Source of the DNA: a virus
Lineage: Duplodnaviria > Caudoviricetes
DNA: 64,000 nucleotides
Reading direction: 5' to 3' (one strand)
IMG/VR virus record: IMGVR_UViG_3300037454_001182
Coordinates: 15,204-79,203 of that record
Positions 23,551 through 39,455 of this stretch are shown in pieces; the first letter of the stretch is position 1, and each line of letters begins with the position of its first letter. Position numbers and translations under genes: made by a program. The notes below the pieces were generated by a model that saw only the letters and a list, made by a program, of their open reading frames with translations, had not been told where the DNA came from and ran no database searches.

Positions 23551-23844
23551 TTACCTGCGCTTACGGCTCCCTCTGGCTCTGCGGTCACCTGCAGTATCAC
23601 TCTTGCTGCCTCTGTTGGCAGAAGCGGACTTATATACAAGTCCATGTGAAGTGTGGCTCAAATCCTTACCACTGCGAGAGGATTTGCCATACTTCTTATC
23701 ATGCTCACGGTTAGCCTTGGCCAGTTCGGCACGTTTCTTCTGCTGTGACGGTTTCTTATTAAACTCCGTATCATAGGCAGCTTTTTTCTCACGCGCCTTG
23801 GGATGGGTTCTGTAATACTCTGTGGAACGGCTTGCCATAGTCAC
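23551..23844 (-). CDS. Basic hypothetical protein, possibly degenerate HNH family
   Basis: 97 aa, Lys/Arg-rich, GKDLSH...SANR motif. Confidence 0.55.
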   Translation of the reverse strand: MTMASRSTEYYRTHPKAREKKAAYDTEFNKKPSQQKKRAELAKANREHDKKYGKSSRSGKDLSHTSHGLVYKSASANRGSKSDTAGDRRARGSRKRR

Positions 23845-23854
23845 CTCCTTTCAG

Positions 23855-24514
23855 TTAGGGCCACTCTCCCAGAGGGCAACTAAAGCCAGAACCGTCAAAC
23901 ACAGGATTCTTGTCTGAGACATCGCCTGTCACCGCATCCACATACAACTGCGCTCGATTATTGCCGAAGATGTATTGAGGATTGGCGTTCTTTGGCCCTA
24001 CCTGTTTTCGTAGTACACAATGGCGCGAATGAGGCTTGGGATAGTTGGCAGACATGACCTTTTCGTAGGCTTGTGCGAATGTAATTTTGATGCCTTGGTC
24101 ATTCAATGGGAAATCCTCAATCCAGAAGCCGTGATGCTGCTCCATCTGCACGTCTTTCTTAGTGTGCGTAAAGATGATTACCTCAGTATCAGCCCCACCA
24201 GAATCAAGGTCGGTCACTACCTGGAACACATTAGTCACGGTTTCAACGGCTCCTGTCTGGTTCTCGCCATCAAGGTAATCAGCCAGAACGATGTCTGTCT
24301 CATAGTACCGATAGTCGGAACCGTAGTTGACGAACATGTATTCAAGGTCGGAACTGATAGCGGTAGCCACGTTCAGCACGACATTTCCACTTGCAACAGT
24401 CTCGGTTGTGGGAACTGATGCCTCCTGCGTTTTCTTTTTGGGGTCGCAAGAGAACAACCCCATGAGCATGACTGCACATAGTGCAAACAGGCTCAGACGA
24501 AGTAGTTTCTTCAT
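23855..24514 (-). CDS. Lipoprotein with PepSY-like C-terminus
   Basis: Signal peptide with lipobox LFS-C; ITFAQAYEKV...LYVDAVTGDV is PepSY-like. Confidence 0.7.
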   Translation of the reverse strand: MKKLLRLSLFALCAVMLMGLFSCDPKKKTQEASVPTTETVASGNVVLNVATAISSDLEYMFVNYGSDYRYYETDIVLADYLDGENQTGAVETVTNVFQVVTDLDSGGADTEVIIFTHTKKDVQMEQHHGFWIEDFPLNDQGIKITFAQAYEKVMSANYPKPHSRHCVLRKQVGPKNANPQYIFGNNRAQLYVDAVTGDVSDKNPVFDGSGFSCPLGEWP

Positions 24515-24519
24515 GTTGT

Positions 24520-24768
24520 TTAATTGATTTGGTTTGGAAATATATCACTTTTTGGTTGGAAGTGAATACAACTCTTTTGACTTAGTAGGACACAGAATTT
24601 CTTGTTAGTGTAGTGAGGGCAACGGCCTAAAGTCGGCTTTCCTTCCAGACTGATTGTGTGGTGCGCTGTCTCATACTCACACAAGGCACAATCACGGCAT
24701 TGGTGATTCCCCACCTCCTGTCTCTGCCTCTGGTTCTGGCTCGGTGTCTTGGTCGGCTTTCTTGACAT
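24520..24768 (-). CDS. Cys-rich hypothetical protein
   Basis: CxxC..C motifs; start may lie downstream of the ORF-track start. Confidence 0.5.
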   Translation of the reverse strand: MSRKPTKTPSQNQRQRQEVGNHQCRDCALCEYETAHHTISLEGKPTLGRCPHYTNKKFCVLLSQKSCIHFQPKSDIFPNQIN

Positions 24769-25087
24769 ACACGTTCAATCTGGATTCAACGATGGTGGAT
24801 TCACCCTGTCTATACACACTAACCTCAACAATATCTTTGGCAGTATTGAAGATGCCAGAAAGATTATGCTTGATGGTCTCATCAATCAGCATACGCAAGG
24901 CTTTACGGCTTGACTTTTCATTATTCTCACGCTTGAACTTACGGAGTTCATTTTTCGTGATTTCATGACCTATGCCGATGGCTTTGGCCTCATAGTGTTC
25001 ATAGATGGGAACTACGGCCGATATAGCGGCCTCTGGATTCAGTTTCATTGCCCACTTGGTGAGTAGGGCGGCTAACTTTTTCTTCAT
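24692..25087 (-). CDS. Hypothetical protein
   Basis: 131-aa ORF right after the portal gene. Confidence 0.6.
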   Translation of the reverse strand: MKKKLAALLTKWAMKLNPEAAISAVVPIYEHYEAKAIGIGHEITKNELRKFKRENNEKSSRKALRMLIDETIKHNLSGIFNTAKDIVEVSVYRQGESTIVESRLNVYVKKADQDTEPEPEAETGGGESPMP

Positions 25088-25098
25088 ACTATTTCGGA

Positions 25099-26562
25099 TT
25101 ACATTACTACTTGATTGCTCATTGCAAAGGCATCGGCCTTGGTCTGTGCCGTGGCCTTTTCCTCTTTCTGAATCTGCTCTAACGTCTGCTGTGCGTTGTC
25201 GCTCATGCCGTAACGCTCGATGGATTCCAGTTGGCTTTCGATGGGCTTGCCACCGTTGGCCACCTTACGCTTGTTAATCTCTGCCAGTTCGTCATTCTGG
25301 ATGAAAGGCGATATGATATGCTCACAGGTGATTGCGTCAATGTCTGCGGCCCACTTGTTATTCATGCACTTCAAGAATGCCTTGATAACATTGAACTCAC
25401 GCTCCAGAAACTCTATCCAGATTCCAGACATTTCACCAATCTTCAAGTGCGCATCTGTGAGCATCGTCTGACGGGCATCAAAGCCGATGTTGCCCAGACC
25501 TTTCATGTTCTCGAAAGATATGTCTGGTATCTGCGCTTGCATCCAGTAGAGTTTGAGCATGGTGTCAACATGGTACTTCAAAGCCTCGATAGCCTGCTGC
25601 CATGCGACATATCCCACATCACCGCCATTCTCGACGCGGAAGATTCTACGGCTTTCGCCCTTATCCTCTTTGCCTTTCATGCCGCCAATGATTTTGAGGA
25701 TGGGGGCAGAGTTGTAGGCTATGACGTTGGAGTTTCTGGAAAGTGTGTACTCTATCTCTTTGCGTAGTCCAGTCAGTCCATGATAGACAGGCTTCGGCAA
25801 CCATGCGTAAGCACCGGGAATCTTCACAATCTGGATTTCATCACCGTGGACTTCCTCACCCTCATCTGAGGTTCTGGCCGTAACCTCTTCCCAGTCACCA
25901 CCTGTCAACTCTTGCCTCCAGATATAGTGACGGTCGGCTGTGTACGTCTCAAAGTAGGTGATACTCTTATCCTTGATTTTCTTGGTGTACTCAAATGACA
26001 TCGACAACATATCATCCATTTCGTCAATGATGGGGTACAACTTTGTGCCGTTCATTGGCGAGTACGTCTTACATTTGAGTTTCCATTTGGAATCAAAGCC
26101 ATACAGGGTGTTAGGCTTCTTTACCGCATACCAGATAGTGAACACTTCACAGGCTGCATACAAATCAAGTCCACGCTTCAAGTTCTCAGAATCAATGCGG
26201 ACGTTTTTGTAGATAGCCTCTAAAGCCTTAACGATGGCCTGTCTGGTCTCATTGGGCGAACCATCATCATTCGTGGTGTTGGAATAAACACGCTTGACAG
26301 GCAGGGCAAAAGTGAACTCTGCCATACGCTTTGCCAACAGTTTTTCCAGTCCGATGCTGATACGTGCTGAAGGTTCTGTTGTACCGTCCGACCGCGTTTT
26401 GTCTTTGAGCGTAGTTGTGTCAGTACAAATCTCATGCTTGGTCGGCTCATAATCTTCAACCAGTTTTTCCCAATCGGGAACTGGAACGGATTTCTCTTTG
26501 AGGTCAGCGATAATTTCACTGGCCTTTCGAGTAAAGTCAATGATGGATGATATATCGGCCAT
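25099..26562 (-). CDS. Portal protein (SPP1 gp6-like)
   Basis: 487 aa upstream of MuF; sequence pattern of SPP1-type portals (YFETYT, ISFENMKGLGNI, DAHLK). Confidence 0.85.
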   Translation of the reverse strand: MADISSIIDFTRKASEIIADLKEKSVPVPDWEKLVEDYEPTKHEICTDTTTLKDKTRSDGTTEPSARISIGLEKLLAKRMAEFTFALPVKRVYSNTTNDDGSPNETRQAIVKALEAIYKNVRIDSENLKRGLDLYAACEVFTIWYAVKKPNTLYGFDSKWKLKCKTYSPMNGTKLYPIIDEMDDMLSMSFEYTKKIKDKSITYFETYTADRHYIWRQELTGGDWEEVTARTSDEGEEVHGDEIQIVKIPGAYAWLPKPVYHGLTGLRKEIEYTLSRNSNVIAYNSAPILKIIGGMKGKEDKGESRRIFRVENGGDVGYVAWQQAIEALKYHVDTMLKLYWMQAQIPDISFENMKGLGNIGFDARQTMLTDAHLKIGEMSGIWIEFLEREFNVIKAFLKCMNNKWAADIDAITCEHIISPFIQNDELAEINKRKVANGGKPIESQLESIERYGMSDNAQQTLEQIQKEEKATAQTKADAFAMSNQVVM

Positions 26563-26589
26563 TTTTCAAAAAAGTTGTAATTACGACCG

Positions 26590-26621
26590 CAAAGGTACAC
26601 AATTTATTTGAATAACAAATA
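26590..26621 (-). promoter_or_regulatory. Portal promoter (TACCTTTG) with operator copy 3 (26605-26621)
   Basis: -7 box at 26590-26597; exact 17-bp palindrome over the -33 region. Confidence 0.75.
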
Positions 26622-26642
26622 AAATTAACTATAAAAATCAAT

Positions 26643-26668
26643 AAAAGGCGCACTTTCGCACACCTTTT
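26643..26668 (-). terminator. Intrinsic terminator
   Basis: Minus strand GGTGTGC-GAAA-GTGCGCC-TTTT. Confidence 0.65.
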
Positions 26669-26697
26669 ACTGTAAACACCCCGATTTTTGCAGGTTC

Positions 26698-26940
26698 TTA
26701 TGCCCTCTGGAACTCTCTATGTCGCGCTAATTGGCTACGATAGCCCTCCATGCAACGCTTCATGTAACTTGTGGCTGCATACCTCGTTGGATTGGTCATG
26801 TACGGCTCTGTCTTATACAGGTTGATTTCCCTGCGACACGTCCACATCTGCTGAATGAGCCATACTTCTGTTTGCGTCTTTTGTCGTTTCATTGCTCTTC
26901 GATTTAGATGTATCAAGATAGCCGATAATACGACCATCAT
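26698..26940 (-). CDS. Hypothetical protein
   Basis: 80-aa ORF. Confidence 0.45.
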   Translation of the reverse strand: MMVVLSAILIHLNRRAMKRQKTQTEVWLIQQMWTCRREINLYKTEPYMTNPTRYAATSYMKRCMEGYRSQLARHREFQRA

Positions 26941-26958
26941 AGAAAGAACGAATAGGTC

Positions 26959-27600
26959 TCATGCCCATAACTTCACGGCTGTATCGTAATTCTTCTGGGC
27001 TTCATTAACGGCTTTCTTGGCATAGGTCAGAGAGTAGGCATGTTCGCGCTCAATCTTACCCTCTTTCATGGCTTGATGGTATGCCTTGGCCTTTTCCAGA
27101 ATCTCAGCGTAATACTGTATGCTCTCTGGCATTGACAGGTTGATGTCCTCAGTGTGACGTTCCCAACCCTCGGCCTTGTCACGGTAGGCTTCTGCCTTAT
27201 CCATTTCAGCGGCCATCTTTCCAGTGTTGCGCCATGCGTCCTCAATGGCTTTGCGGTGTCTGCGCTCAGAATGATGTCCGACTTTGATAGGCTCTCCCAG
27301 AGAGAGGAAAGCTGCATCTTTGTTGGACTTGTCGAAATACTCACCTGCGCGTCTGTCTGCATTGGCGGCTGCTTGCTCGTACTTCTCGACTTTCCGTTTG
27401 GCTCTCTCCTGGCAGTTGTAGCCATCAGCCCGAACGATGGAGTAGTAGAAAAATCCACCACGTTCTGCCACGAGGTTGTAAACGATGTGTTCATTCTCTT
27501 TGCCGTACTTTGTAGTTACGGTGATGATTTCGCCTCTTTCGTGCCTCTCTTCGCATTTTGCTACAAATACGTTGGGGCAATACTTTTGATACGTGTTCAT
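26959..27600 (-). CDS. DUF3560-like protein
   Basis: GEPIKVGHHSERRHRK motif; AGAGCA-ATG start. Confidence 0.8.
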   Translation of the reverse strand: MNTYQKYCPNVFVAKCEERHERGEIITVTTKYGKENEHIVYNLVAERGGFFYYSIVRADGYNCQERAKRKVEKYEQAAANADRRAGEYFDKSNKDAAFLSLGEPIKVGHHSERRHRKAIEDAWRNTGKMAAEMDKAEAYRDKAEGWERHTEDINLSMPESIQYYAEILEKAKAYHQAMKEGKIEREHAYSLTYAKKAVNEAQKNYDTAVKLWA

Positions 27601-27623
27601 TGCTCTTACTTTTTATAGGGTTA

Positions 27624-27926
27624 CTACTTAATTGTCACTTTCACTGGTTGAACGTCCTCGATGATGTCATTTACCCATGTGATAGCCTTGATAGGCTCCA
27701 ATGTCTCGCGGTAGTTCTCAGTATCATACTTGAACTCGATTTCATACAGGGTGCCCGGCTCTCCCTCAAAGAGTATCGACCAGTAGCCATCACTCCAACA
27801 CTCATTGCTGATTTCGTAGGCTTGATTCTTCTGGCTGTTGCTCAACTCGTTCAGACAGTCATTGATAATCGCTGTTCTCTTAACGGTCTCACCGTTACTC
27901 TGGAACTGAATCTTAATCGTTTTCAT
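27624..27926 (-). CDS. Hypothetical protein
   Basis: Start moved to AGAGCA-ATG at 27926 (MKTIKIQ). Confidence 0.65.
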   Translation of the reverse strand: MKTIKIQFQSNGETVKRTAIINDCLNELSNSQKNQAYEISNECWSDGYWSILFEGEPGTLYEIEFKYDTENYRETLEPIKAITWVNDIIEDVQPVKVTIK

Positions 27927-27950
27927 TGCTCTTATTCTTAATTGATTTCT

Positions 27951-28028
27951 ATACTGCAAAGATAACCATTTTTTCTGAATTATCAAAACCGATTGAACTC
28001 TATTTTTAACCGACCAACTCTTTTTAAC
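27951..28028 (-). promoter_or_regulatory. Repeated promoter element, copy 3
   Basis: TATACTGCAAAGATAACC..TTCTGAATTATCAAAAC...CCAACTCTTTTTAAC. Confidence 0.78.
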
Positions 28029-28034
28029 AATATG

Positions 28035-28371
28035 GGAAACAGCGACTTTAATCGCTGCTCCATGCGCCTTTGATTACTGGTACGCTTCCAGAGGATGATT
28101 AAGCGTTCACTCTGCTGTCTGGGTGATACGTGCGACCACGGTTTCTACGGTTTTCTCCTTTGCCCCATCGGTATAAGTTCGGAGGCGTTGACTGGTTACG
28201 AGCTTTTCCTTGCCCCGACTGTCGGCCTGTCTGGTCGCCGCATCGCTTTCAAGTTCCTGTTTTTGTTTCAGAGGATGAGTGCAACTTCAAAGGTGCTAAC
28301 GAAAATGCGGATAACTCACCCTAACCCTAATGAGAGGTTTGTTGGTGCCCGAGGCTCGAACTCAGGCGCAC
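28035..28371 (-). ncRNA. Candidate structured RNA beginning with a tRNA minihelix-like hairpin
   Basis: ~340-nt stretch without a convincing ORF; 5' GTGCGCCTGAGTTCGAGCCTCGGGCACCA; 3' hairpin CAGCGA/TCGCTG followed by TTT. Confidence 0.35.
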
Positions 28372-28375
28372 AGCC

Positions 28376-28759
28376 TTACTGATTCACCATCGGAGTGACT
28401 AACTCCGTAATACCACGCTTGACCGTTTTCTTTGGGGCTTCCAGTTGGTCACAGATGGCGATTCTTTTTCCAGCCCTTACCAGTTTGGGCAGGTAGGTAT
28501 CAAGGGCATGGTGAGGGAACCCGGCCATTGCACCGCGATATGTCTTGTAGTCTGGTCTGACATTTCTACGCCATGTCAGAGTGATACCCAGAATGTCTGC
28601 ACATGTCTTGGCATCCTCATTGTAGGATTCATAGAAATCACTGACACGGAATAAAAGCACTGCGTCTGGATGCTTACTCTTGATGTCGTAATACTGCTTC
28701 ATCATTGGCGAAAGCGTTGTCATATCAACAACCTTTGCACTGGTCTCTGTCTGCTCCAT
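28376..28759 (-). CDS. Stand-alone MutS domain I (mismatch-recognition) protein
   Basis: [35 protein letters not shown]...[29 protein letters not shown]; start moved to MEQTET. Confidence 0.88.
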
Positions 28760-28900
28760 ACTAATCTTCAGTAAATTGGTTACAACTGTCGCCCCTCGAT
28801 GTGGAACGCTCATACTTATCTGAACTCTCATTCGTGCATTCGTAGTAGTGATAACCCATGCACTTCCAGAACTTGCAATTTTCGCAACAGTCTTTCATAA

Positions 28901-29254
28901 TCATGCCTCCCCATATAAGCGGTTAATGAACTTTTCCAGATAGCACTCATCTTTCATTTCAGACAATGGCTTCGGATTGTGGCAGATGTCTCTCTCAACA
29001 CCGCAACCCCAACTATTCTTCAAGTTCTGGAGTTCGGTAAGGCTGAAATACCCATACTCACATTCTCCATACCCATTGACTACGATTCCAAAAGCCAGAT
29101 TCTCTTTTAGGTCGGCTTCCAACACATACCAGGTATGCGCCCCACCAGTGAGGAAATACTTAACTACGCAAATGGCATTTTGCTTTTTGTCGCTCTGGGA
29201 GTACAGCGGAAATTTCGCTAACTCCTTTTCTACTTGTTTCGTGACTAATTTCAT
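28901..29254 (-). CDS. DUF2958-like protein
   Basis: VVKYFLTGGAHTWYVLE...EYGYFSLTEL...VERD motif. Confidence 0.75.
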   Translation of the reverse strand: MKLVTKQVEKELAKFPLYSQSDKKQNAICVVKYFLTGGAHTWYVLEADLKENLAFGIVVNGYGECEYGYFSLTELQNLKNSWGCGVERDICHNPKPLSEMKDECYLEKFINRLYGEA

Positions 29255-29276
29255 TGCTCTTACTGCTATGTGGTTA

Positions 29277-29561
29277 TTACTTTACTTCCAACTCATCCAG
29301 AGAGATTTCTTCAAAACTTCCTGGCCAGTTGTAGATGGGCGTTGTGTCAAATGCTCCATACTCTACTATCTCTAACTCATCGCCCTGTATCTCCCAGATG
29401 TCACCATTCTCATTACCATCACTATCCTCATACATGATGGCAATGTTAGTGAAATTGGCAGTCTCTTCAACATAGAGACCTGTGAACTCTAAACCATTTT
29501 CTTTGAGGTTGGCAATCAGTTCCTCGACCTTTGCTTTCAGTTGTGCTGTAATTGATTTCAT
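29277..29561 (-). CDS. Acidic hypothetical protein
   Basis: 94 aa, AGAGCA-ATG start. Confidence 0.65.
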   Translation of the reverse strand: MKSITAQLKAKVEELIANLKENGLEFTGLYVEETANFTNIAIMYEDSDGNENGDIWEIQGDELEIVEYGAFDTTPIYNWPGSFEEISLDELEVK

Positions 29562-29597
29562 TGCTCTTGAATTTTGAAAGTTATTATCTTTATTATT

Positions 29598-29676
29598 GTA
29601 CTACAAAGATAGCGTTTTTTTCTGAATTATCAAAACGAATGAACCTTTATTTTCAACTGACCAACTCTTTTTAACT
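29598..29676 (-). promoter_or_regulatory. Repeated promoter element, copy 4
   Basis: Same consensus as the other copies. Confidence 0.78.
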
Positions 29677-29683
29677 CTTGAAA

Positions 29684-29914
29684 TTAGAGATACTTTTGAG
29701 CGAGTATCACCTTTGCCTCTTCCAGTATGGAATCAGTATTGATGCCCAAACTCTGGTAGAACTGACCGCCACCGTTCAACGTCTCACTGGCTATCTGGAT
29801 GGTTCTGCGCTCATCACGGCTAAACCCCATTCGGAATGTCCGAAAGACAGCCAGAGCCTCGCGCATCCGGCCATCTTTCAGTAGGGCAACAGCTTTACTG
29901 GTTTTCGTTTCCAT
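29684..29914 (-). CDS. Hypothetical phage protein
   Basis: Start moved to METKTSKAV. Confidence 0.65.
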   Translation of the reverse strand: METKTSKAVALLKDGRMREALAVFRTFRMGFSRDERRTIQIASETLNGGGQFYQSLGINTDSILEEAKVILAQKYL

Positions 29915-30074
29915 GAACAACGTAGATTTCGTGACCCTCAAAGTCACCACTGTCTAACACTATCTCTGAGGCTTTCCACTGTGCTTCGACCTTATCCCAA
30001 GCCTCATCGGAACTATTGGCCTCGACCTCTACCGTTCTGGATAGGGTCTCAATGATTTTCACTTTGTACGTCAT
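29895..30074 (-). CDS. DpnD/PcfM-like small protein (59 aa, absent from the ORF track)
   Basis: Manual translation: MTYKVKIIETLSRTVEVEANSSDEAWDKVEAQWKASEIVLDSGDF... Confidence 0.7.
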   Translation of the reverse strand: MTYKVKIIETLSRTVEVEANSSDEAWDKVEAQWKASEIVLDSGDFEGHEIYVVHGNENQ

Positions 30075-30352
30075 AACTGCTTTTTATATGGGTCATAAAC
30101 TTCTTCAGTATGGGTAAACTCATACGGCTCACCGTCAATTCTCAACACTATTGCGCCATGTTCCAGAGCGGCCTCAACCGTATCAAATGGATAATCACAA
30201 CCATCAACATGACAATTATACTTATCCTCATACCATCTACCGGGACAATCAATCTGGAATGCTATGCGTTCCACTATCTTTCTGCCAGACTTGTACTGCG
30301 TTGTAATCCAGATGTGGTTATCTACAACTGGATGAACAATATATGTCTTCAT
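30071..30352 (-). CDS. Hypothetical protein
   Basis: 93 aa, translationally coupled. Confidence 0.6.
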   Translation of the reverse strand: MKTYIVHPVVDNHIWITTQYKSGRKIVERIAFQIDCPGRWYEDKYNCHVDGCDYPFDTVEAALEHGAIVLRIDGEPYEFTHTEEVYDPYKKQL

Positions 30353-30354
30353 AT

Positions 30355-30873
30355 CTAAAACGATGGGTCAATGTAATGTCTGCGGAAACCGACTGTCAGT
30401 GTCACACTACCGAACTTCTTAGGTTGGCCCTCTTCAACCCATTTGCCATTCTTGCGCAAGGTGAACGTGTGCTTTCCCATATACTCGGCAATGGAATCCA
30501 GAACCTTGTAACGGCCACCGTAGTAGTCTAAACATTCAGTCTCATTTTCCTGTACTATGATTTTCTTTGGACTTACAACCTCTACGATGGTCATAGCCCT
30601 GTGGTCACTCCAGAGGTTCATTGTGGCACCGAGGCCGACTTTCAATTCTGGATTGGATTCAGCAAACACCTCGGCTGCAACCTCCGGCCAATCTTCACGC
30701 TTCCATCTGGTCAGAAACTCATTCATAAAGTAGTCGAAGTCATAGCCATTCAACTTGCACACATCGGCATCATGGCGCATTTCTTCCAACTGGCTTTCTG
30801 TCAGTTCAATGGTGTAGGCTTTGCCATCCCACATCTTTGTTTTGGTCTTTACAACCGTTTCTTTTGTTTCCAT
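30355..30873 (-). CDS. Hypothetical protein
   Basis: 172 aa, AGAGCA-ATG start. Confidence 0.7.
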   Translation of the reverse strand: METKETVVKTKTKMWDGKAYTIELTESQLEEMRHDADVCKLNGYDFDYFMNEFLTRWKREDWPEVAAEVFAESNPELKVGLGATMNLWSDHRAMTIVEVVSPKKIIVQENETECLDYYGGRYKVLDSIAEYMGKHTFTLRKNGKWVEEGQPKKFGSVTLTVGFRRHYIDPSF

Positions 30874-30884
30874 TGCTCTTTGAT

Positions 30885-31208
30885 TTAGAATATTAACTTT
30901 CGTGCGATTGGGCAGTTGGCATACGCCTTGACCAATCTTTGCTCTTCTTTCTTGAATGCCCTGTTGTGGGTGGCGTTACCATCATTCTCAATGAGTATCT
31001 GGTGGGCTACCTCATGACAGAGTGCGTAGGCAGCACCGATACAGATTCTTGCGAGGTCTATGCTGATGGAATAAACACGCTTTCCAGAATAGGTGCAACA
31101 GGCACCGCCCTTTCCAACTCGCTTGAACCGCAAAGGCTTCTGGGTGATTTTCTCTGTCTGGCAGATGAACTTGTAAAGTTCTTGCAGGGTAAGCATATCT
31201 TTCTCCAT
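30885..31208 (-). CDS. SprT-like zinc metalloprotease-fold protein
   Basis: LCHEVAH (HExxH) followed by H.xxFK motif. Confidence 0.7.
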   Translation of the reverse strand: MEKDMLTLQELYKFICQTEKITQKPLRFKRVGKGGACCTYSGKRVYSISIDLARICIGAAYALCHEVAHQILIENDGNATHNRAFKKEEQRLVKAYANCPIARKLIF

Positions 31209-31220
31209 GACTTCGGGCGT

Positions 31221-31487
31221 TTAGAGTGAATCAATATATAAGTTCTTAACCTCTCCACTGGCAATCATTGAGGCAACTTTCTCATTGATTGCGTCCAGTC
31301 CGATGATGTCCTGGCTGTCATGCTGCTCAACCTTGATAAGATGAAACTGCCTGTCTGATTTCAGCAACTCAATCACGCATTCACCGTTGACGGTCTCAAT
31401 GACTATCTGCTGCTTCCAAGGGTCATACTGGTAAGCCATCTTATCGTACTTCTTTTGAAGTGACTTTGTTTCTTTTGTCTGTCTCAT
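31221..31487 (-). CDS. Hypothetical protein
   Basis: 88 aa, AGAGCA-ATG start. Confidence 0.65.
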   Translation of the reverse strand: MRQTKETKSLQKKYDKMAYQYDPWKQQIVIETVNGECVIELLKSDRQFHLIKVEQHDSQDIIGLDAINEKVASMIASGEVKNLYIDSL

Positions 31488-31508
31488 TGCTCTTATAGTT
31501 TGAATTTC

Positions 31509-31588
31509 TATACTGCAAAGATAGCGATTTTTTCTGAATTATCAAAACGGAAAACTCTTTATTTTCGCCTTGCCAACTCTTTTTAACC
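31509..31588 (-). promoter_or_regulatory. Repeated promoter element, copy 5
   Basis: Same consensus as the other copies. Confidence 0.8.
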
Positions 31589-31591
31589 AAT

Positions 31592-31663
31592 AAAAAAGGT
31601 GTGTCCTAACTTCACAGTCGAGACACACTAAGAGCAATGAAATCGTCAAAAGAAACGATTTCG
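31592..31663 (-). ncRNA. Candidate sRNA-2 carrying AUUUCAUUGCUCUUAGUGUGU (antisense to AGAGCA-AUG starts)
   Basis: -7 box TAATTTTG at 31668-31675; 5' hairpin GAAATCGT/ACGATTTC; unpaired seed; terminator GTGTGTC/GACACAC plus T6. Confidence 0.65.
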
Positions 31664-31705
31664 GCTGCAAAATTACAAAATAATATTCAAACCATCTAAT
31701 TTTTG

Positions 31706-33217
31706 CTACAAAATATCTTTCTCAATATCTTCATCGTCTGAAAAATCGTAGTCACGCGGATAGAACGTGTTGGCCAACGCATCGAATTTGTCTGGTGAAC
31801 GCTTCAACCGCTTCTTTATATCATCCTTGCTCTCCATGATGATACTACCGTTACTCTGGAACTTCCAGTGTATTTCTGTGGCTTCCTCAATCAAGCCATC
31901 GTCTGGAGGCAGTGCCGGATTAAAGCCGTTCTTTGGATTTAGCCAGTCACGGACTGCCCAGAACAGGTAAGCCCTCATGTTGGCAAAGGTGTACTGCTCT
32001 GTGATGTCGGACAGCCCTTTCGTACCCTCAGAGAACTTGCACGAATAGGCATTGGAATACTCCAACTCTTCCAGTCTGGAATAGACACCTGCACCCTCTC
32101 CGATGGTGTCAATGAAAGCCTTTGCGTCTGGGTCTGCAAGATAGGGCGTAGTCATTCCGACAACGTGCATGTGGTCGGCCTTTCCACCAGACTGATGCAC
32201 CTTGATTTCTGGAACCCATGAGCCATAGCGAGGCAGCAGAATACTATTGTCACGACCCATACCTGCGACATCGACACCGAGACGGACGGACTTCTTTGTA
32301 GTGAATCCAGATTCTTTCAACTCGTACCACCGTCTGTTTGCCAGTTCCACCCACTCGTAAGGTATGAGTATATCTTCTGCGGCTTTCGGGAACATGCCCA
32401 ACACCTTGACCCTAAACAGGTCATTCGGACGGTACATCTTGCCCTCCCAGAAGAAATCACCCTGCCCCTCATCAAACTCTTCCGGCCTAATCGGTGTGGC
32501 CCAATTCTCCACCTTATCCTTGACCCACTCATAATCGACCTGCCCAGGAATGACATTACGCTTCTTTACCACATTCTCAGCATTGAGCGAGTTTAGTCTG
32601 AACTTGTTGAATCGGCCAGACTTCATAGCCTTGGCCGCATATCCAGTTGTGATGTTCGGGTTAAAGACGATCAACAACCGCGAATTACCCTGCAAGTTAC
32701 CCTCAATGGCATTGAACGTGTTTTCAGAGATACCCGATGCCTCGGTGACAATAAACATGGTATTGACTGCATGGAATCCAGACCACGCCTCGGTGTTATC
32801 CTCGGAACTCTTGAATCCTGTCAAGTACCACTCATCATAATTGGTACGGATGCCGTTAGAAAGCAAACGACCGGGCAGGAACTTTGCAGTACGGAACAGA
32901 CGCGCCACCTCTGGAATCATAATGTCCTTTACCTGTCTGCCAGTGGGTGCGGTCATTGCTATCTTGGTATTGCCTACGAGGTTGCCATCCTTGAATCTGG
33001 GTGTGAGATACATAAAACACATCGCAGCGCAAGCGGCCACATAGTCCTTTCCTCTGGCAGTACCAGAGGCTACGGCTGTCATGGGATTGTGCTGCACCGA
33101 AGAAAGTATTGCCTGTTGCTCTTTGTCGAGATTGGCACGCAATACGTCTCTGGCAAACAGATTCCAGTCGGCTTGCCATTTCTTCAGTTGGTGCTGTGCT
33201 TTTCTGTTGTCTATCAT
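31706..33217 (-). CDS. terL: Terminase large subunit
   Basis: Walker A-like SGTARGKD, Walker B FIVTEASG, nuclease motifs GVDVAGMGRD and SPDKFDALA. Confidence 0.93.
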   Translation of the reverse strand: MIDNRKAQHQLKKWQADWNLFARDVLRANLDKEQQAILSSVQHNPMTAVASGTARGKDYVAACAAMCFMYLTPRFKDGNLVGNTKIAMTAPTGRQVKDIMIPEVARLFRTAKFLPGRLLSNGIRTNYDEWYLTGFKSSEDNTEAWSGFHAVNTMFIVTEASGISENTFNAIEGNLQGNSRLLIVFNPNITTGYAAKAMKSGRFNKFRLNSLNAENVVKKRNVIPGQVDYEWVKDKVENWATPIRPEEFDEGQGDFFWEGKMYRPNDLFRVKVLGMFPKAAEDILIPYEWVELANRRWYELKESGFTTKKSVRLGVDVAGMGRDNSILLPRYGSWVPEIKVHQSGGKADHMHVVGMTTPYLADPDAKAFIDTIGEGAGVYSRLEELEYSNAYSCKFSEGTKGLSDITEQYTFANMRAYLFWAVRDWLNPKNGFNPALPPDDGLIEEATEIHWKFQSNGSIIMESKDDIKKRLKRSPDKFDALANTFYPRDYDFSDDEDIEKDIL

Positions 33218-33594
33218 TCTTCTGAATCTTCATCGTCTGGCATTTCTCGCAACAGTTTCTCAAAGGCATTCACATCTACCTCATTCTCCATACGCTCAAT
33301 GTAACCACGTTTCTTGCCCTTGGTCTTTAGGTAGAATATGATGGCCGTAGGATTCTCATTGCGAATTAGGGACAGCAACTTACTCTCTGCATAGTCCAGA
33401 TTGGATTCGTTCACCTCTTCCACGGCATCGGCAAACTCTGGATTCTTCATCCAGTTATAGTACGTCTGACGCGACACCTTGACTTTGGCACACGCTCCAG
33501 TCACGTTTCCGAGTGACAGCTTCAACGCTTCAAGGAAACGGTTCTGCTCCTTAGAGAGATTTTCATACTTCAACTTCTTAACCGCCATGCTCAA
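33214..33594 (-). CDS. terS: Terminase small subunit
   Basis: HTH region (GNVTGACAKVKVSRQTYYNW) and AIIFYLKTKGKKRGY; directly upstream of terL. Confidence 0.85.
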   Translation of the reverse strand: MSMAVKKLKYENLSKEQNRFLEALKLSLGNVTGACAKVKVSRQTYYNWMKNPEFADAVEEVNESNLDYAESKLLSLIRNENPTAIIFYLKTKGKKRGYIERMENEVDVNAFEKLLREMPDDEDSEE

Positions 33595-34348
33595 AAATTG
33601 ATTTCAGTCCTACTCGATAATTACGGTACGTTAGCGGAACTGTGAACATCTGACGGTCAACGTCCTGTGTCACGTTGTCGCGCTCTCTGGGATGAGGGTC
33701 ATAGAGGATGCGCACACCATTGTACTTCGCCACCTCTTCGGCAAAATCGGCTATTCTGGTAGGCTCATAGTTCACCACGTTTACTACTTGATGATGGTAG
33801 CCCAACGCGGCAATAAGCCCATCCGTGGCATCGTCTATGTGTGTAAAACAGCGGATATTCTCACCGTTGTTATACAGGGTCACTTCTGGGTTATTCATCA
33901 AGACGTGTAACAGGGTGCCAGAACGCGGTTCTGAGCCATAGACGTTATGCAGTCTTACCCCTGTCGCGTTCTTGGCGTAGAGTGCTGCAAACTGCTCATC
34001 GAAACGCTTACTCAACCCATAGAGTGAGGTAGTGTTGCCATCGTTGGCGGTTGAGGATGAGGCATACACCAACGGCACATTATGCCTGTTACACTGCTCC
34101 ACCACCTCGATAAATGTCACGATGTTATCATCTGCAATCTGGCGCAGGTCATTGTTAAACACGCTTGTCTGTGCTGCAAGGTGGAACACCCCTACAACAT
34201 CACCATCCAGATAGTCACCAATACCTTTTGCCTCAATGCCGAGGTGACGGTCTATCCGTATCACCTCGACATTCTTTCTGGATTCCAGTTTCTTGCAAAG
34301 GGCTTTGCCAATGAAGCCCTCACTTCCTGTCACTACGACTTTATCCAT
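33578..34348 (-). CDS. NAD-dependent nucleotide-sugar epimerase/dehydratase
   Basis: GSEGFIG Rossmann motif, YASSS, YGLSK (YxxxK), RLHNVYG. Confidence 0.88.
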   Translation of the reverse strand: MDKVVVTGSEGFIGKALCKKLESRKNVEVIRIDRHLGIEAKGIGDYLDGDVVGVFHLAAQTSVFNNDLRQIADDNIVTFIEVVEQCNRHNVPLVYASSSTANDGNTTSLYGLSKRFDEQFAALYAKNATGVRLHNVYGSEPRSGTLLHVLMNNPEVTLYNNGENIRCFTHIDDATDGLIAALGYHHQVVNVVNYEPTRIADFAEEVAKYNGVRILYDPHPRERDNVTQDVDRQMFTVPLTYRNYRVGLKSIFEHGG

Positions 34349-34355
34349 ATACTAA

Positions 34356-34892
34356 CTATTGAAAGAAATCATCAAAGAGGCCCAACTGTCGCGGCTTCAA
34401 CGCCTCGAACTCTTCTCTGAAGAACTGGTCTTTGGTGCGCCCCATCATCTTACCCTTGCGAGTGTGAACATCGTAGGTGTATTCTGGAATGGGAATCGGG
34501 TACCGTCTGGCATCTTCGAGCCATGCGTCCACATTCTCCAGTCGGTTCTGGTCATAGACAAGATTCTGCAAGTGGTCTGCATCACGGCTTTTGCGACACT
34601 CACACAGGAGCAGAACGGCCTTACTGACGAACACCCTGCCTTTCGGCACAGGTTGTTTCTTGTTTACTAACTCATGGCCCTGCCATAACGCCTCAATCTC
34701 TTGGGTGATGAGGCCGTAGCAGTCTTCCGCGCTTATCGTGTATAGTCTCTTCCAGACATAATCACGGTAGCCTGAATGCCATAATTCCAGGGCGAAATAC
34801 CCTGCTGTTCGTGCGTCTGCTCTACGAATGGCCTTTTGCATGGCTGATGATACTTCGTAGAAATCGTAACCTTTAACTGTTCTTAATTCCAT
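34356..34892 (-). CDS. RarA/MgsA C-terminal-like domain protein
   Basis: YEVSSAMQKAIRR...RLYTISAEDC motif; no AAA+ core; C-terminal QLGLF. Confidence 0.7.
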   Translation of the reverse strand: MELRTVKGYDFYEVSSAMQKAIRRADARTAGYFALELWHSGYRDYVWKRLYTISAEDCYGLITQEIEALWQGHELVNKKQPVPKGRVFVSKAVLLLCECRKSRDADHLQNLVYDQNRLENVDAWLEDARRYPIPIPEYTYDVHTRKGKMMGRTKDQFFREEFEALKPRQLGLFDDFFQ

Positions 34893-34987
34893 TGCTCTTA
34901 CTTTTGGTTTTGTTATTCTTGTTTTCTAACAGTAAAGTTAGTCATTTTTAGCGAGATATGCAAATTTTCAAACTTCTTTTTCATCGT

Positions 34988-35749
34988 TCAAAACCTAAAA
35001 TTTGTTATGATGTTGTATTGTACTTTGTTGATGGTCTTTTCAGAACCATTCGACCCTTGCCCTTTCAGTTGGATGGCTTCACCGAACATCTTACGCATGA
35101 AGAGGATGCTACGCCTTTCCTCATCATGGTTACGAATCTCGGACAAACCACCTGCATTGACAAAGGTGTCTTTCTGGACGAACGTATAACGCTCATCTGT
35201 CAGTATGCGCCTTTCCTTGAACTTCATATAACAGGAAATCCAGAAATCTTCTTTCAACTTCAACTCTTCATTCCACCAGACGTTTTCATTGAAGCGGACA
35301 CCATACGAGCAACCTGTAATCTGTCTGGTGAATGAGAGGTAACACTGCTCATCATACTGTACTGGTGTCTTTCGGTTGGTGTAACCCCAACAGTGAACAT
35401 CAAGCATTTCTGCCAGTTCGTGCAACTCTTCGACTATGCGCTGCACCTCATTGGGGTCTTTGATATTGCACTTCTCGCCTTTCTCATTGTAGAGTTTCTT
35501 GAACTGAAAGACATCATCATCGACCATGAACAAATCTCCGAAATGCCGTGCCATCCAGTTACGCTTCGGGATAAGCCCTACTACATCGTCTGGATGGGTC
35601 ACAATCTCACACTCTGGATTGAAACGCCTATACTGTTCCGCTTGGCTTTCGGCCACGCAGATAATGGGCGAGGGGAACAGCTTCTTTGCTACCACTCTAT
35701 CCCACCGCTTATGACTGGGTATGACTATCTTCAAGGGCATGGCGCACAT
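34988..35749 (-). CDS. GT-A fold glycosyltransferase (TET-associated/GREB1-like)
   Basis: IVIPSHKR, KRNWM, MVDDDV (DxD), KEDFW, NAGG motifs. Confidence 0.75.
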   Translation of the reverse strand: MCAMPLKIVIPSHKRWDRVVAKKLFPSPIICVAESQAEQYRRFNPECEIVTHPDDVVGLIPKRNWMARHFGDLFMVDDDVFQFKKLYNEKGEKCNIKDPNEVQRIVEELHELAEMLDVHCWGYTNRKTPVQYDEQCYLSFTRQITGCSYGVRFNENVWWNEELKLKEDFWISCYMKFKERRILTDERYTFVQKDTFVNAGGLSEIRNHDEERRSILFMRKMFGEAIQLKGQGSNGSEKTINKVQYNIITNFRF

Positions 35750-36386
35750 CTTCTATACTGATAACATTTGACTTGCACAAACGACCGCTCTTATATGATT
35801 TCATCCTCTGCATACCCAACTTCTCACGGAGCCAGTTAGAATCGACCTCATTTGAACTATGTATGATGAACAACTCGTGTTTCTCATCATACTTGGGAAT
35901 CATCGGGTAAACGGCATCTTCATCCTTGATGTTGTTGAACCTCTTTTCAAAGGCATCTTTCTTCTTTTCCTCTGGCAGTTCAACACCCCAACCCATCAAC
36001 TCATCTGGGTTCCAGTCATTCATCATGGCTTCGATGTCATTCTCACCAAAGGAAACATTGTCTTTGGATGCGTACTCACGCAACTTTGCAGCAGTAGTCT
36101 CTTTAGGCAGTATCTTGACTGGAACCTCCTTAAATCCCAACTCCCTGCATGCGCGAAGTCTGAGGTTTCCGCAAACGGCTACCAGGACATCATCAACAGG
36201 GTACGCGATAATCTCACGAAGAGACAGCATTTCGGGTGATTCCTCGATGCTTTTCTTCATCAACTTGTAACGCAAATCTCGGACAAAACGAGGGTTCTTT
36301 GGTACTCCCTCTATCTGTCCTGTATTGTACTGCAACCGAGACACTTCAACGATTGACAGTGGTATTGCCTTAAATTCTCTCTGCAT
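35709..36386 (-). CDS. ParB/Srx N-terminal domain protein
   Basis: PKNPRFVRD, VCGNLRLRACRELG, KDNVSFGE; start moved downstream of the promoter (MQREFK). Confidence 0.8.
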   Translation of the reverse strand: MQREFKAIPLSIVEVSRLQYNTGQIEGVPKNPRFVRDLRYKLMKKSIEESPEMLSLREIIAYPVDDVLVAVCGNLRLRACRELGFKEVPVKILPKETTAAKLREYASKDNVSFGENDIEAMMNDWNPDELMGWGVELPEEKKKDAFEKRFNNIKDEDAVYPMIPKYDEKHELFIIHSSNEVDSNWLREKLGMQRMKSYKSGRLCKSNVISIEDVRHALEDSHTQS

Positions 36387-36413
36387 ATTTGAACTTATTT
36401 TGTAATTTGGGGG

Positions 36414-36457
36414 CAAAGGTACAAAAATTTCTCTTAATTCTATTTGAATAACAAATA
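36414..36457 (-). promoter_or_regulatory. Promoter of the ParB-terminase operon with operator copy 4 (36441-36457)
   Basis: TACCTTTG at 36414-36421; exact 17-bp palindrome upstream. Confidence 0.7.
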
Positions 36458-36491
36458 AATTTGCCAATTTTAGCGTGATAGTGTACTCTTT

Positions 36492-36710
36492 TCACATGTC
36501 AAAGAGGTCTAATTGCACCGCCTTTGGCTTCGGTGGGTGGTTACAGGCGATGCAACCGTTATGCTCATTGCACCACTCATAGCGGATGAAGTAGGGGCAT
36601 CGGTTGTGACCGCCACCAGAGTAACAGACATCATTCTGGAGGTCTCTCTCACCAAAAGGACACTTAACCTGTTCCTTTGGGATGAATGCGTTTGGTACAT
36701 AGGTAATCAT
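36492..36710 (-). CDS. Cys-rich protein with C-terminal QLDLF motif
   Basis: 72 aa; ends AVQLDLFDM. Confidence 0.6.
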   Translation of the reverse strand: MITYVPNAFIPKEQVKCPFGERDLQNDVCYSGGGHNRCPYFIRYEWCNEHNGCIACNHPPKPKAVQLDLFDM

Positions 36711-36713
36711 AAC

Positions 36714-36971
36714 TCAAAAACTAAATGACAGTTGTATTGGTTGTGAATGATGGGTGGCTTTCGTTCTCGCATAGATGGAACACTCATTCCTGTATGCACA
36801 TCTTCCGGCCTTGGCCTCAGAGAAACGCAACGCCCACAAATCTTGTCTGTCAAGCGTTAGTTGCTCCTTGCTCTCATTCATAATGAAGCCTACAAGTTTC
36901 ATGCAGAAAAACCCTTTGTCGGTTGACTTTTCATCTACCAGTTCTATAAGTCCGTTCCCTACTGGTCTCAT
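36714..36971 (-). CDS. Hypothetical protein
   Basis: 85 aa; ends IQLSFSF. Confidence 0.6.
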   Translation of the reverse strand: MRPVGNGLIELVDEKSTDKGFFCMKLVGFIMNESKEQLTLDRQDLWALRFSEAKAGRCAYRNECSIYARTKATHHSQPIQLSFSF

Positions 36972-38623
36972 ACGGCTACCCTCCTTTCTATCTCATCCAG
37001 ACGGTCACAGAGGGCTTCGCACAACACCCTCGCCATGCCGACCTCTACCGCATTGCCAATGAACTTCTTTTGCTCTGATTGACTGCCTACCAGGACGTAA
37101 TCAGTAGGGAACCCCATAATGCGTTTCAACTCGGACACCTTCAGCATCCTCATCTTAATGTCGATAATACTATACATCGCCATGAACTCCTTAATCTTCT
37201 GGGTCATTGGGCTGTCAGTCTCATACACCTCTATGCCTACTCCCTCTTTGGTGCTGATAAGGTACGGCGGCATCTTATCCATACGAGCAATCAGAGTGAA
37301 GCAAGGGTCATTGACCGAGCCACCTTTGCTTGCAAACTGCGGATTCATCAAGTAGTGCCATTTGGCCGTAGTCTGTTCTGCGGTCACTAACTGGTACTTC
37401 GGATTCGTGGTCGCTGTTGGTGCCGGACTTTCAATAGATGAGGGTGTGCCATTGCCGTACTGCATATCCAGAAAGCAAGCCTTGACTTTCTCGAAGCGGT
37501 CTTTGGTGGTGACGGTTGGCGATGGTTTTTCCAGAGAGGAATTGAAGCCATTACCATAGTGAGCCGTTAGGAACTCCGCTTCAACGAGTGCGTGATGGTC
37601 AATACAGGTCAATGTTCCTGCAGGCCCATCCACGCTGATATTCTTGTCTGACGGATTGCCAGAGAATTGCTTTGACAGGAAGTGTACCTGTGCAACACCG
37701 AGGCGGTTCTGACAGGCAACAGTCGGACACGGCTCATCAATGGATGGTGCAGAATAGCCACCACTTCGATTCATGGAGTTGTATTTCACGATGAAAGCCG
37801 CAAAGTCTCTCTGGCTCATTCCGGCCACAAACTTAATCAAACCTGCATAGATTCTTTCGAGGGTCTTTTCAACCAGTGGCTTCTTTCTGTCAAAGATGGA
37901 TTCGCCCTCATCTGAGAAATCCAGAACGTCACGAACAGGCTTCCATTTCTTCATTTCTCCAAACATTCCACCTGTATCACCATCCTTGGAATGGGTGGCT
38001 ACCGGGAATGTGATGGGGAGGCCAGTCTTGGCGAATTGACCAAAGAACCGCTTTCTGGAAGTATAGGCTCCGTAGTCGGCAGCGTTCAGAATACGCCAGT
38101 AGTAATCATAGCCATAACTCTTCACGTTCTGAATCCATTTGAGATAACAGCGGCCTTTATCCTTGCTGATGGGGTGGCCGTGTTCGTCCATATCGCCCCA
38201 ACTCATGAACTCTTCCACATTCTCAATCTGGATATAGTCTGGATTCAGAGCCTCAATATAACGGAACAGGTGTTCAGCCAACGTGCGGCTGTCTGCGTCT
38301 CTGGGCATACCACCTTTGGCCTTACTGAAGTTCGTACATTCCAGTGAAGCCCACAATACAACGTAGGCATCTGGGTACTTCGCTTTCATCTTCTTTAGAT
38401 GGGCAACCATTGGCGTTAGTTCCAACGTCCTAATATCCTCAGTGTAATGTACTGCCTCTGGATGGTTGGCAGCATGAGAGGCAATAGCGTTTGCATCGTG
38501 ATTGACACAGGCTATTACCTTGGCACATTTCTTGCCGTTGTGGGTCGCTTTCTCCACGCCAGTAGATGTGCCACCTGCACCACAAAACAGGTCAATGTAT
38601 AACAATCTAATATCTTCCATCAT
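36968..38623 (-). CDS. C5-cytosine DNA methyltransferase
   Basis: DLFCGAGG (motif I), SLECTNFS (variant motif IV), IENVEEF (VI), RKRFF (VIII), FIGNAV (X). Confidence 0.92.
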   Translation of the reverse strand: MMEDIRLLYIDLFCGAGGTSTGVEKATHNGKKCAKVIACVNHDANAIASHAANHPEAVHYTEDIRTLELTPMVAHLKKMKAKYPDAYVVLWASLECTNFSKAKGGMPRDADSRTLAEHLFRYIEALNPDYIQIENVEEFMSWGDMDEHGHPISKDKGRCYLKWIQNVKSYGYDYYWRILNAADYGAYTSRKRFFGQFAKTGLPITFPVATHSKDGDTGGMFGEMKKWKPVRDVLDFSDEGESIFDRKKPLVEKTLERIYAGLIKFVAGMSQRDFAAFIVKYNSMNRSGGYSAPSIDEPCPTVACQNRLGVAQVHFLSKQFSGNPSDKNISVDGPAGTLTCIDHHALVEAEFLTAHYGNGFNSSLEKPSPTVTTKDRFEKVKACFLDMQYGNGTPSSIESPAPTATTNPKYQLVTAEQTTAKWHYLMNPQFASKGGSVNDPCFTLIARMDKMPPYLISTKEGVGIEVYETDSPMTQKIKEFMAMYSIIDIKMRMLKVSELKRIMGFPTDYVLVGSQSEQKKFIGNAVEVGMARVLCEALCDRLDEIERRVAV

Positions 38624-38862
38624 GTTTCTCTTACAAATCGTTTACTACTTATGCGCTTATACTTCACTTTGGGGTCATAGTTCTTAATCAGCATACGAAT
38701 CTGGGCATCTGTCAAGTTCGGACAATCTGCCTCTTTGAAGATTCTGGCATCGCCTTGGTGTTCACCGAAGTTCCGCAAGGGAAAATGCCTCAGATACCCA
38801 TGCTCTCCAACCATTAACACGGTCACTTCGTAACCATCATTCCAGTTAATACCGAACTGCAT
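38620..38862 (-). CDS. Hypothetical protein
   Basis: Start moved to MQFGINW. Confidence 0.55.
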   Translation of the reverse strand: MQFGINWNDGYEVTVLMVGEHGYLRHFPLRNFGEHQGDARIFKEADCPNLTDAQIRMLIKNYDPKVKYKRISSKRFVRET

Positions 38863-39295
38863 ACTGCTTGATTTTATTGATGTAATCTGGGAACTCTTCA
38901 AAGGGGAACTCATCACGGTTGAGGGCATCAATCTGTGCGAGAACCTGTTGCTTCTTAGCCTCATTGTCTTGGCTCTTGAAGTGAAACAAATCATCATCAA
39001 CCACGCCCTTTTCCAGTTGCTTCAACTTGGTTGCTCTGGACTTCAACAATGTGGCTCTCCTATGTTCGTGCCACTCCTTGCCAACTAATATATCCTGTGG
39101 GCCTTTGTAGAACTCAACCTTTCTATGAGGATTGTTCACCTTGACCAGTGCGGCCAGATATTCAAAGTACCACAGCCACCTTGTAACAAAGTCTGGTGTC
39201 ATGCCAGAGCGGTAATAGACTACATCATCCATGTGGAAATAGTTAGTCTCACCGCTCACGGCAATCTTCACCACGCATTTATTCAAGTCTGCCAT
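38846..39295 (-). CDS. Hypothetical protein
   Basis: 149-aa ORF in operon. Confidence 0.65.
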   Translation of the reverse strand: MADLNKCVVKIAVSGETNYFHMDDVVYYRSGMTPDFVTRWLWYFEYLAALVKVNNPHRKVEFYKGPQDILVGKEWHEHRRATLLKSRATKLKQLEKGVVDDDLFHFKSQDNEAKKQQVLAQIDALNRDEFPFEEFPDYINKIKQYAVRY

Positions 39296-39296
39296 A

Positions 39297-39455
39297 TTAC
39301 TTACGCATCATTGCGTTGCTTTGTGTACTACTGTCTGGTGAGGTCAGAATGGTAAATGCCCATAGTGGGGACAATACAATCACAACCACGATAAGGATAA
39401 TATAGCAGATTGCCATCAAAGCGTACAAACCTGCTGACTTCAAGAACTTTCTCAT
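39297..39455 (-). CDS. Small membrane protein (52 aa, absent from the ORF track)
   Basis: Manual translation MRKFLKSAGLYALMAICYIILIVVVIVLSPLWAFTILTS...; fills the gap between genes. Confidence 0.55.
   Translation of the reverse strand: MRKFLKSAGLYALMAICYIILIVVVIVLSPLWAFTILTSPDSSTQSNAMMRK

Follow-up and report, generated by a model that had tools for sequence, protein, structure and literature searches.

Directly downstream of the probable large terminase gene of a Bacteroidota prophage, the minus strand carries a compact unit, sRNA-2, which probably specifies a trans-acting antisense RNA of ~68-72 nt that blocks translation of a tagged early and accessory regulon. The stretch exposed between its two predicted hairpins mirrors a motif that spans the start codon of 23 genes, and this one RNA probably switches off all 23 of these non-structural genes. 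The shared motif, referred to below as the tag, and the RNA seed that faces it recur together in related prophages, where both are nearly invariant and the stems around the seed change by compensatory substitution. We infer the transcription of sRNA-2, its repressive effect on translation and its timing from sequence.

Genomic setting

The DNA analyzed here (the window, 64,000 nucleotides) comprises bases 15204-79203 of a 79.2-kb IMG/VR provirus record, a Bacteroidota prophage. Nearly all of its genes lie on the minus strand, with early replication and recombination genes at ~60-39 kb and packaging, head and tail genes below ~34 kb. The original prediction placed the sRNA directly after terL, and the unit does adjoin a gene of 503 aa (Table 1). 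The name terL is itself a lead from synteny and a protein language model: the gene follows that of the small terminase, its language-model neighbors carry Terminase_6N, its protein has no match in Pfam, NCBIfam or the PDB, and PHROGs returns only an unannotated family. We refer to it as the probable large terminase.

Two further features of the window are recorded here in their own right. A tRNA gene at 14124-14196 on the minus strand scores 51.3 bits with Rfam; ARAGORN gives it a four-base anticodon (gaaa) and no amino-acid assignment, which may reflect an enlarged anticodon loop in a tRNA-Phe-like gene. A LuxR/GerE-type helix-turn-helix regulator (59654-60202, minus strand; PHROG 'transcriptional regulator') directly precedes the tagged Sak4-like gene on its upstream side, and the Sak4 leader region contains TGTTT.ACAATTT, which is kept among relatives.

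Table 1. Positions in the window of the sRNA units, the adjoining gene and the tagged start regions
Feature	Position	Strand	Basis or relation
503-aa gene, probable large terminase (terL)	31706-33217	-	directly upstream of the sRNA-2 unit
sRNA-2, -7 promoter box TAATTTTG, Bacteroidota type TAnnTTTG	31675-31668	-	sequence read
sRNA-2, 5' hairpin, 8-9 bp, arms GAAAUCGU/ACGAUUUC	31662-31639	-	fold and sequence
sRNA-2, seed UUCAUUGCUCUU, 12 nt, predicted single-stranded between both hairpins	31641-31630	-	fold
sRNA-2, intrinsic terminator, 12-13-bp stem, GUGA tetraloop, U6	31628-31592	-	sequence and fold
sRNA-1, same-seed paralogue (tag mirror at 19113)	19059..19201	-	sequence and fold
Helicase start region	54715..54735	-	21-nt perfect complement of sRNA-2, -14 to +7
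Sak4-like annealing protein start region (gene 59613)	59611..59626	-	16-nt perfect complement, -13 to +3
Start region of the 130-aa gene (47065)	47057..47073	-	17-nt perfect complement, -8 to +9
Other 20 AGAGCAAUG-tagged starts	span 19970..51111	-	tag count and ORF starts
Tagged ATGs 1-10 of those 20	19972, 20746, 21106, 21435, 26892, 27600, 27926, 29254, 29561, 30873	-	
Tagged ATGs 11-20 of those 20	31487, 34892, 39876, 40458, 40917, 45719, 46018, 46264, 50290, 51105	-	

Anatomy of the sRNA-2 unit

Read along the minus strand from 31675 to 31592, the unit consists of a -7 box, a 5' hairpin, the unpaired stretch UUCAUUGCUCUUA and a GNRA-capped terminator followed by U6. The arms of the 5' hairpin, GAAATCGT and ACGATTTC, occupy 31662-31655 and 31646-31639, and unpaired AUUGCUCUUA sits on its 3' side. 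Next to the seed, the 3' arm of this hairpin is the mirror of codons 2-3 in several targets; the seed itself mirrors AAGAGCAAUGAA, positions -7 to +5 of the tagged genes. In the terminator, GTGTGTC (31628-31622) faces GACACAC (31605-31599), the stem extends to 31598, and T6 occupies 31597-31592; the GC-rich stem, GUGA loop and U6 together have the form of a Rho-independent terminator for a short RNA. Its 5' arm (GUGUGUC) also mirrors the helicase and Sak4 leaders. A 121-nt region containing the unit folds at -32.5 kcal/mol (z = -3.85), and none of 200 shuffles is equally stable.

The sequence and the folds agree with the anatomy first proposed, that is, a hairpin, an unpaired stretch, a GTGTGTC/GACACAC terminator and T6. 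The proposed -7 box is also present, just outside the interval 31592-31663 to which the RNA had been assigned. A canonical -33 TTTG was sought 17-21 nt upstream of this box and is absent. Because the window copy has the -7 box but lacks the canonical -33 element, its transcription from a promoter of its own is uncertain.

A start-codon tag on 23 genes

Against 1.1 expected occurrences, the window contains the tag AGAGCAATG 25 times, and none of 100 shuffles reaches that number. On the minus strand, the gene strand, there are 23 copies, and every one opens an ORF of 64-392 aa. Both plus-strand copies are intergenic and lie inside promoter-hairpin-seed-terminator units, one in sRNA-2 and one in the paralogue at 19113, where they open frames of 20 and 2 codons, respectively. 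The genes for the helicase, the Sak4-like annealing protein and a DNA methyltransferase carry the tag, as do many small genes whose function is unknown. In contrast, it is absent from the genes for the small terminase, the probable large terminase, the portal, MuF and the major head proteins of the window. The target set is as originally described (helicase, Sak4-like protein and others), with packaging and head genes outside it. An earlier count of 22 tagged starts, each complementary over at least 9 nt, is borne out in length and corrected in number: there are 23, the additional one being 26892.

One promoter cassette, ...TTTGATAATTCAGAAAAAA.CGCTATCTTTG.AGTA..., is repeated upstream of seven tagged genes (starts 20746, 21435, 27926, 29561, 31487, 40917 and 47065). 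It consists of a -33 TTTG, a 19-nt spacer and a -7 TATCTTTG box, followed by a ~30-nt leader ending in the tag.

Complementarity to translation-initiation regions

Complementarity between sRNA-2 and translation-initiation regions exceeds chance, with 23 starts matched over 9-21 nt. The three longest perfect matches are given in Table 1, and genes 29561 and 29254 each match over 15 nt; the predicted lengths of 21, 17, 16, 15 and 15 nt all proved exact on recheck. Predicted net interaction energies range from -7 to -22 kcal/mol for tagged starts versus 0 to -7 kcal/mol for an untagged comparison set of seven starts, five of which belong to packaging or head genes. When sRNA-2 is paired with the helicase or the Sak4 mRNA, the terminator is open in the best predicted joint structure. 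At three tagged starts (30873, 50290 and 31487), codons 3-6 contain CAAAAGAAAC(G), the mirror of the loop of the sRNA 5' hairpin (31647-31657), which adds a second complementarity of 11-13 nt; this patch may be chance in A-rich N-termini.

Initiation in Bacteroidota relies on an unstructured start region, not on a Shine-Dalgarno sequence. The RNA would either be transcribed from its own -7-box promoter or persist as the 3' end of the transcript of the terminase gene, and with either origin its 3' end would lie at the GNRA-capped intrinsic terminator. The seed, exposed between both hairpins, would then pair with AAGAGCAAUGAA across the start codon of the 23 genes, and since this pairing covers the AUG, it should keep the 30S subunit off. 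Two tiers of targets are predicted, many at 11-15 bp and a few at 16-22 bp. The Sak4 and helicase duplexes would extend into the 5' arm of the terminator and reach 16-21 bp, which would make these two mRNAs the strongest targets and possible substrates of RNase III.

Conservation and covariation in related prophages

A search of viral contigs with the 503-aa protein gave 355 relatives. Among the best 80 of these (73-89% identical), 77 keep CATTGCTCT after the terL stop, nearly all of them ~55 nt downstream. Their alignment displays the -7 box, an invariant TTTCATTGCTCTT and two stems that differ between lineages yet remain complementary. The promoter motif TAnnTTTG occurs in 23/23 aligned variants; when distinct upstream contexts are counted, 24 of 28 have the -7 box and four do not, and in 11 of the 24 with the box a TTTG also stands 17-21 nt upstream of it.

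An initial MAFFT/RNAalifold alignment recovered only the terminator, owing to loop indels, and a covariance model built from 14 sequences was used instead; it finds 41 copies, 36 of them distinct. The resulting alignment leans towards structure, as the model shaped it. Pairing holds in 92% of its cells versus 73% after shuffling and 38-54% with slid partners, changes occur on both sides in 16 of 21 pairs, and the covariation score is reached by 0/500 shuffles. Compensatory changes are found at six pairs of the 5' hairpin, whose two helices are 96% and 87% paired across the 36 distinct sequences, and at 10 of the 12 pairs of the terminator. Folded independently, all 23 variants form the hairpin, the open seed and the terminator. 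The seed is accessible in these 23 folds and conserved in the 36 distinct homologues, each of its 12 positions being identical in 34-36 of them while the flanks vary.

RNAs with the exact seed are found in closer prophages within Prevotella, Bacteroidaceae, Paraprevotella and Gallipaludibacter genomes. Homologues are carried by P. vespertina A2879, on contig NZ_VVIQ01000002.1 with the prophage at ~174-213 kb, and by Prevotella sp. KH2C16, on NZ_FOOW01000020.1. Variant seeds occur in a Parabacteroides prophage (one letter changed) and in Bacteroides, Bacteroidales and Prevotella MAGs. The RNA is absent after terL in more distant Bacteroidota prophages with related terminase genes, and a blastn search of 31200-33300 against GenBank phages found no cultured phage relative.

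Co-occurrence of tag and seed

The tag is the top over-represented start context in the window and in 11 of 12 fully fetched related elements, with 8-23 tagged starts in each, and it is the sole start context common to the window and those 11 elements. A second tag class was sought in the window and the fetched related genomes, and none was found. Each tag-bearing element has a seed copy on its gene strand, with one to three exact copies or, in one element (G013), variant copies only. Counts in two host genomes show the tag to be phage-private: in P. vespertina, 11 copies fall within a ~40-kb prophage and 15 within the other 2.76 Mb, and in Prevotella sp. KH2C16, 14 fall on one 52.8-kb contig and 12 elsewhere.

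The twelfth element, a rabbit-gut Bacteroides prophage of the same family (G007 contig 6, L129-L132), has only (A)GCAATG, at ~15 gene starts. Its two mirror RNAs, with seeds CAUUGCUCA and CAUUGCUAC, keep CAUUGCU only, so that tag and seed are shortened together.

Covariation between RNA and targets is located in the flanks of the seed. The terminator arm and the Sak4 leader share CACAC in the window, AAGCAC in G001 and G011, TAACACAC in G014 and AAACACAC in G015, and in three of these (the window, G001, G015) the helicase leader changes with the terminator arm. The long match of G002, at 22 nt, involves a different small early gene. The mean match of the RNA to tagged starts of its own genome exceeds the cross-genome mean in 10/11 genomes, and the own-genome maximum is usually 3-6 nt longer than the cross-genome one. 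Regulon-wide, agreement between RNA and leader at -8 is a weak trend. Given that the events are few and the genomes related, flank covariation could partly reflect gene conversion between short repeats. The helicase was also considered as a universal long target and rejected, as most relatives have an untagged helicase and the match in G011 is only 14 nt.

The original prediction asked whether seed and tag co-occur and covary in relatives. They co-occur and their flanks covary; seed and tag show no classical covariation with one another, both being invariant across the family. Proteins of this family differ by 25-40% while the seed and tag are frozen, a pattern that could arise because at least 20 identical targets per genome hardly allow drift.

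sRNA-1 and further copies

The paralogue sRNA-1 begins with a TTTG-N19-TACCTTTG promoter, followed by a 5' hairpin, CAUUGCUCUUAC and a terminator with U5. A strong terminator (19265-19230) directly precedes this canonical promoter, and the succession of a strong terminator and a textbook promoter points to a stand-alone transcription unit. It lies ~20 nt before the first gene of the head operon and shares with sRNA-2 the first bases after the promoter, TTTGC..CCGAAA.CG. The longest match of sRNA-1 to a target is 12 nt, and it lacks long flank matches; it would act as a second RNA with the same seed. Homologues are present in four relatives (G002, G005, G013 and G014), with a conserved GUGUGAAG.UGCACG hairpin and seeds of the form CAUUGCUC(UU/AA).

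In two relatives (L083/L085, 5520-5600), the copy after terL has decayed to CTATTGCTTGG plus the terminator. These relatives keep intact copies of both the sRNA-2 and the sRNA-1 type elsewhere in the same genome (G005, gene-strand coordinates 16261 and 18579).

Alternative explanations

Several other accounts of the unit were weighed against a trans-acting antisense RNA. The RNA might be real and have a narrow range, controlling just the few mRNAs with long matches (Sak4-like, helicase and one or two others), with AAGAGCAAUG on the other ~20 genes serving as a phage-specific initiation context or RNA-binding-protein site where pairing is without consequence. We regard this as unlikely, though it has more in its favor than the remaining alternatives: between two and five targets per genome reach at least 15 nt, flank covariation is confined to long-match targets, the regulon-wide agreement at -8 is weak, and the G007 prophage uses the shorter GCAATG only. 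A restriction to long matches sits poorly, however, with the perfect AUG-spanning duplexes of 11-15 nt that are predicted to be stable at nearly all tagged starts and are ample for seed-type action, with the sharing of the same seed by sRNA-1 in spite of its short matches, and with the invariance of the 3' half of the seed (CUCUU), which pairs solely with the tag. The tag could also mainly serve a translation function of its own. In a further account, which we consider improbable, the unit is an attenuator and not a diffusible regulator: tagged early mRNAs (helicase, Sak4) would pair with the seed, invade the 5' arm of the terminator and license read-through into the region downstream. The long matches do enter that arm, in the predicted cofolds it is just these two mRNAs that open the terminator, and sRNA-1 is placed between a canonical promoter and the first head-operon gene, like a terminated leader. 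Yet the gene that follows sRNA-2 is preceded by a canonical promoter of its own in the window and in most relatives, an RNA acting in trans would need to find the nascent transcript before more than a few further nucleotides were made, and an invariant seed next to a variable arm suits many targets more than one antiterminator. Such a leader or attenuator role would be less economical than the trans-acting antisense reading.

The unit could instead be nothing but the terminator or 3' UTR of the terminase gene, the mirrored tag being what is left of an inverted gene start, or else a site that works at the DNA level, for example a recombination boundary or protein-binding site. It directly follows the terminase stop, the -7 box is missing in a few relatives, and its plus strand resembles a gene start, but a relic would decay, whereas the seed is nearly invariant in 36 distinct sequences despite turnover of the stems by compensatory change. 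In addition, the tag is always in register with ATG, which points to a role at the RNA level, and extra copies of the same architecture occur at other places; this explanation is given very little weight. The least credible of all, to the point of being nearly dismissed, is that the plus-strand AGAGCAATG opens a real protein gene of 20 aa (MKSSKETISAAKLQNNIQTI). A perfect tag with ATG and an open frame of 20 codons are indeed present on that strand. The frames of relatives have unrelated sequences with indels that are not multiples of three, a plus-strand promoter box is missing upstream, and the second mirrored tag, at 19113, opens a frame of only two codons. A conserved plus-strand protein (MKSSKET...) was rejected as a candidate, since the frame runs from 8 to at least 135 aa in relatives (a lower bound, one copy being open off the fetched stretch) and frames and sequences differ. 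The original prediction had named such a protein in relatives as the finding that would overturn it; the 20-aa ORF is not conserved, and the sRNA reading stands. The gene-start appearance of the plus strand would follow from the RNA itself, which mirrors both the tag and the first codons of its targets (Met-Lys-Ser/Thr).

Relation to known regulators

Neither sRNA matches a known RNA family: cmscan of the window against Rfam at the gathering score returned only a tRNA, and a scan of 31540-31720 and 19030-19230 at E values up to 10 gave chance hits only, none of them to C4 (RF01695). Closest in logic are the c4 RNA of P1/P7 (immI region; Rfam C4, RF01695) and the sar RNA of P22, which are likewise small phage antisense RNAs that pair with initiation regions of phage mRNAs. 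They block translation of icd/ant and of ant, respectively, without a host chaperone, and serve lysis-lysogeny and immunity control. Whereas c4 and sar each control a single operon that adjoins or overlaps the gene of the RNA, sRNA-2 would address 23 dispersed genes with one seed through a tag that spans the AUG. The window also differs in holding two seed-bearing RNAs, similarity in sequence or structure to c4 and sar is absent, and the host phylum is a different one.

sRNAs derived from 3' UTRs in enterobacteria, such as DapZ, MicL and CpxQ, resemble sRNA-2 in sharing the terminator of the upstream protein gene and in carrying, ahead of that terminator, a conserved single-stranded seed; sRNA-2 may likewise be made from a promoter at the end of that gene or by processing. 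The enterobacterial RNAs belong to the host and require Hfq, whereas sRNA-2 is phage-borne and its predicted targets are genes of the phage itself; to our knowledge, Bacteroidota are a phylum without Hfq. Phage and prophage small RNAs that base-pair in trans include PreS of lambda (bioRxiv 10.1101/2024.10.31.621285), DicF and IsrK. These act through Hfq mainly on host mRNAs and on one or few targets, in contrast to an RNA directed at the phage's own genes. We know of no description of any of the three with a genome-wide start-codon tag on the genes of its own phage. A functional parallel is offered by RegA of T4, a protein repressor that recognizes loosely related sites at many early mRNA starts and brings about their later shut-off. 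Both would set one phage factor against many early-mRNA start regions, but RegA is a protein with loose sites and sRNA-2 an RNA with an exact 10-mer address. A search of open-access text for the tag motif and for sRNAs of Bacteroides phages found nothing on the tag/sRNA system.

Timing and significance

Two times of action fit what is seen. Expression in the lysogen, for silencing or immunity, would suit the conserved promoter and the moron-like sRNA-1 unit, while the place at the end of the packaging operon fits a late shut-off of early functions. More speculatively, and with the balance of probability against it, the system may be a family-wide RNA code for immunity or timing, in which a resident prophage, or an infection at a late stage, employs one ~70-nt RNA to silence every AAGAGCAAUG-tagged early or accessory gene, including those of incoming related phages (Prevotella, Bacteroides, Parabacteroides), and in which extended duplexes that unzip the terminator of the RNA itself lead to destruction of the Sak4 and helicase mRNAs. 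The extension to incoming phages is suggested by the family-wide constancy of seed and tag. Such a code would amount to a post-transcriptional master switch that works without a chaperone, a type not known to have been described for phages.

RNA regulation is little understood in Bacteroidota, which lack Hfq and Shine-Dalgarno-led initiation, and an arrangement of one seed with many identical targets would make a good system for chaperone-independent sRNA action. The pair of tag and anti-tag may also become a portable means of controlling genes in Bacteroides and Prevotella. Provided that the RNA is transcribed and works as predicted, widespread prophages of gut and rumen Bacteroidota would control ~twenty of their own genes with one antisense RNA and a 10-letter address, an unusually large and simple post-transcriptional regulon that could explain the shut-off of early genes or cross-immunity among related prophages.
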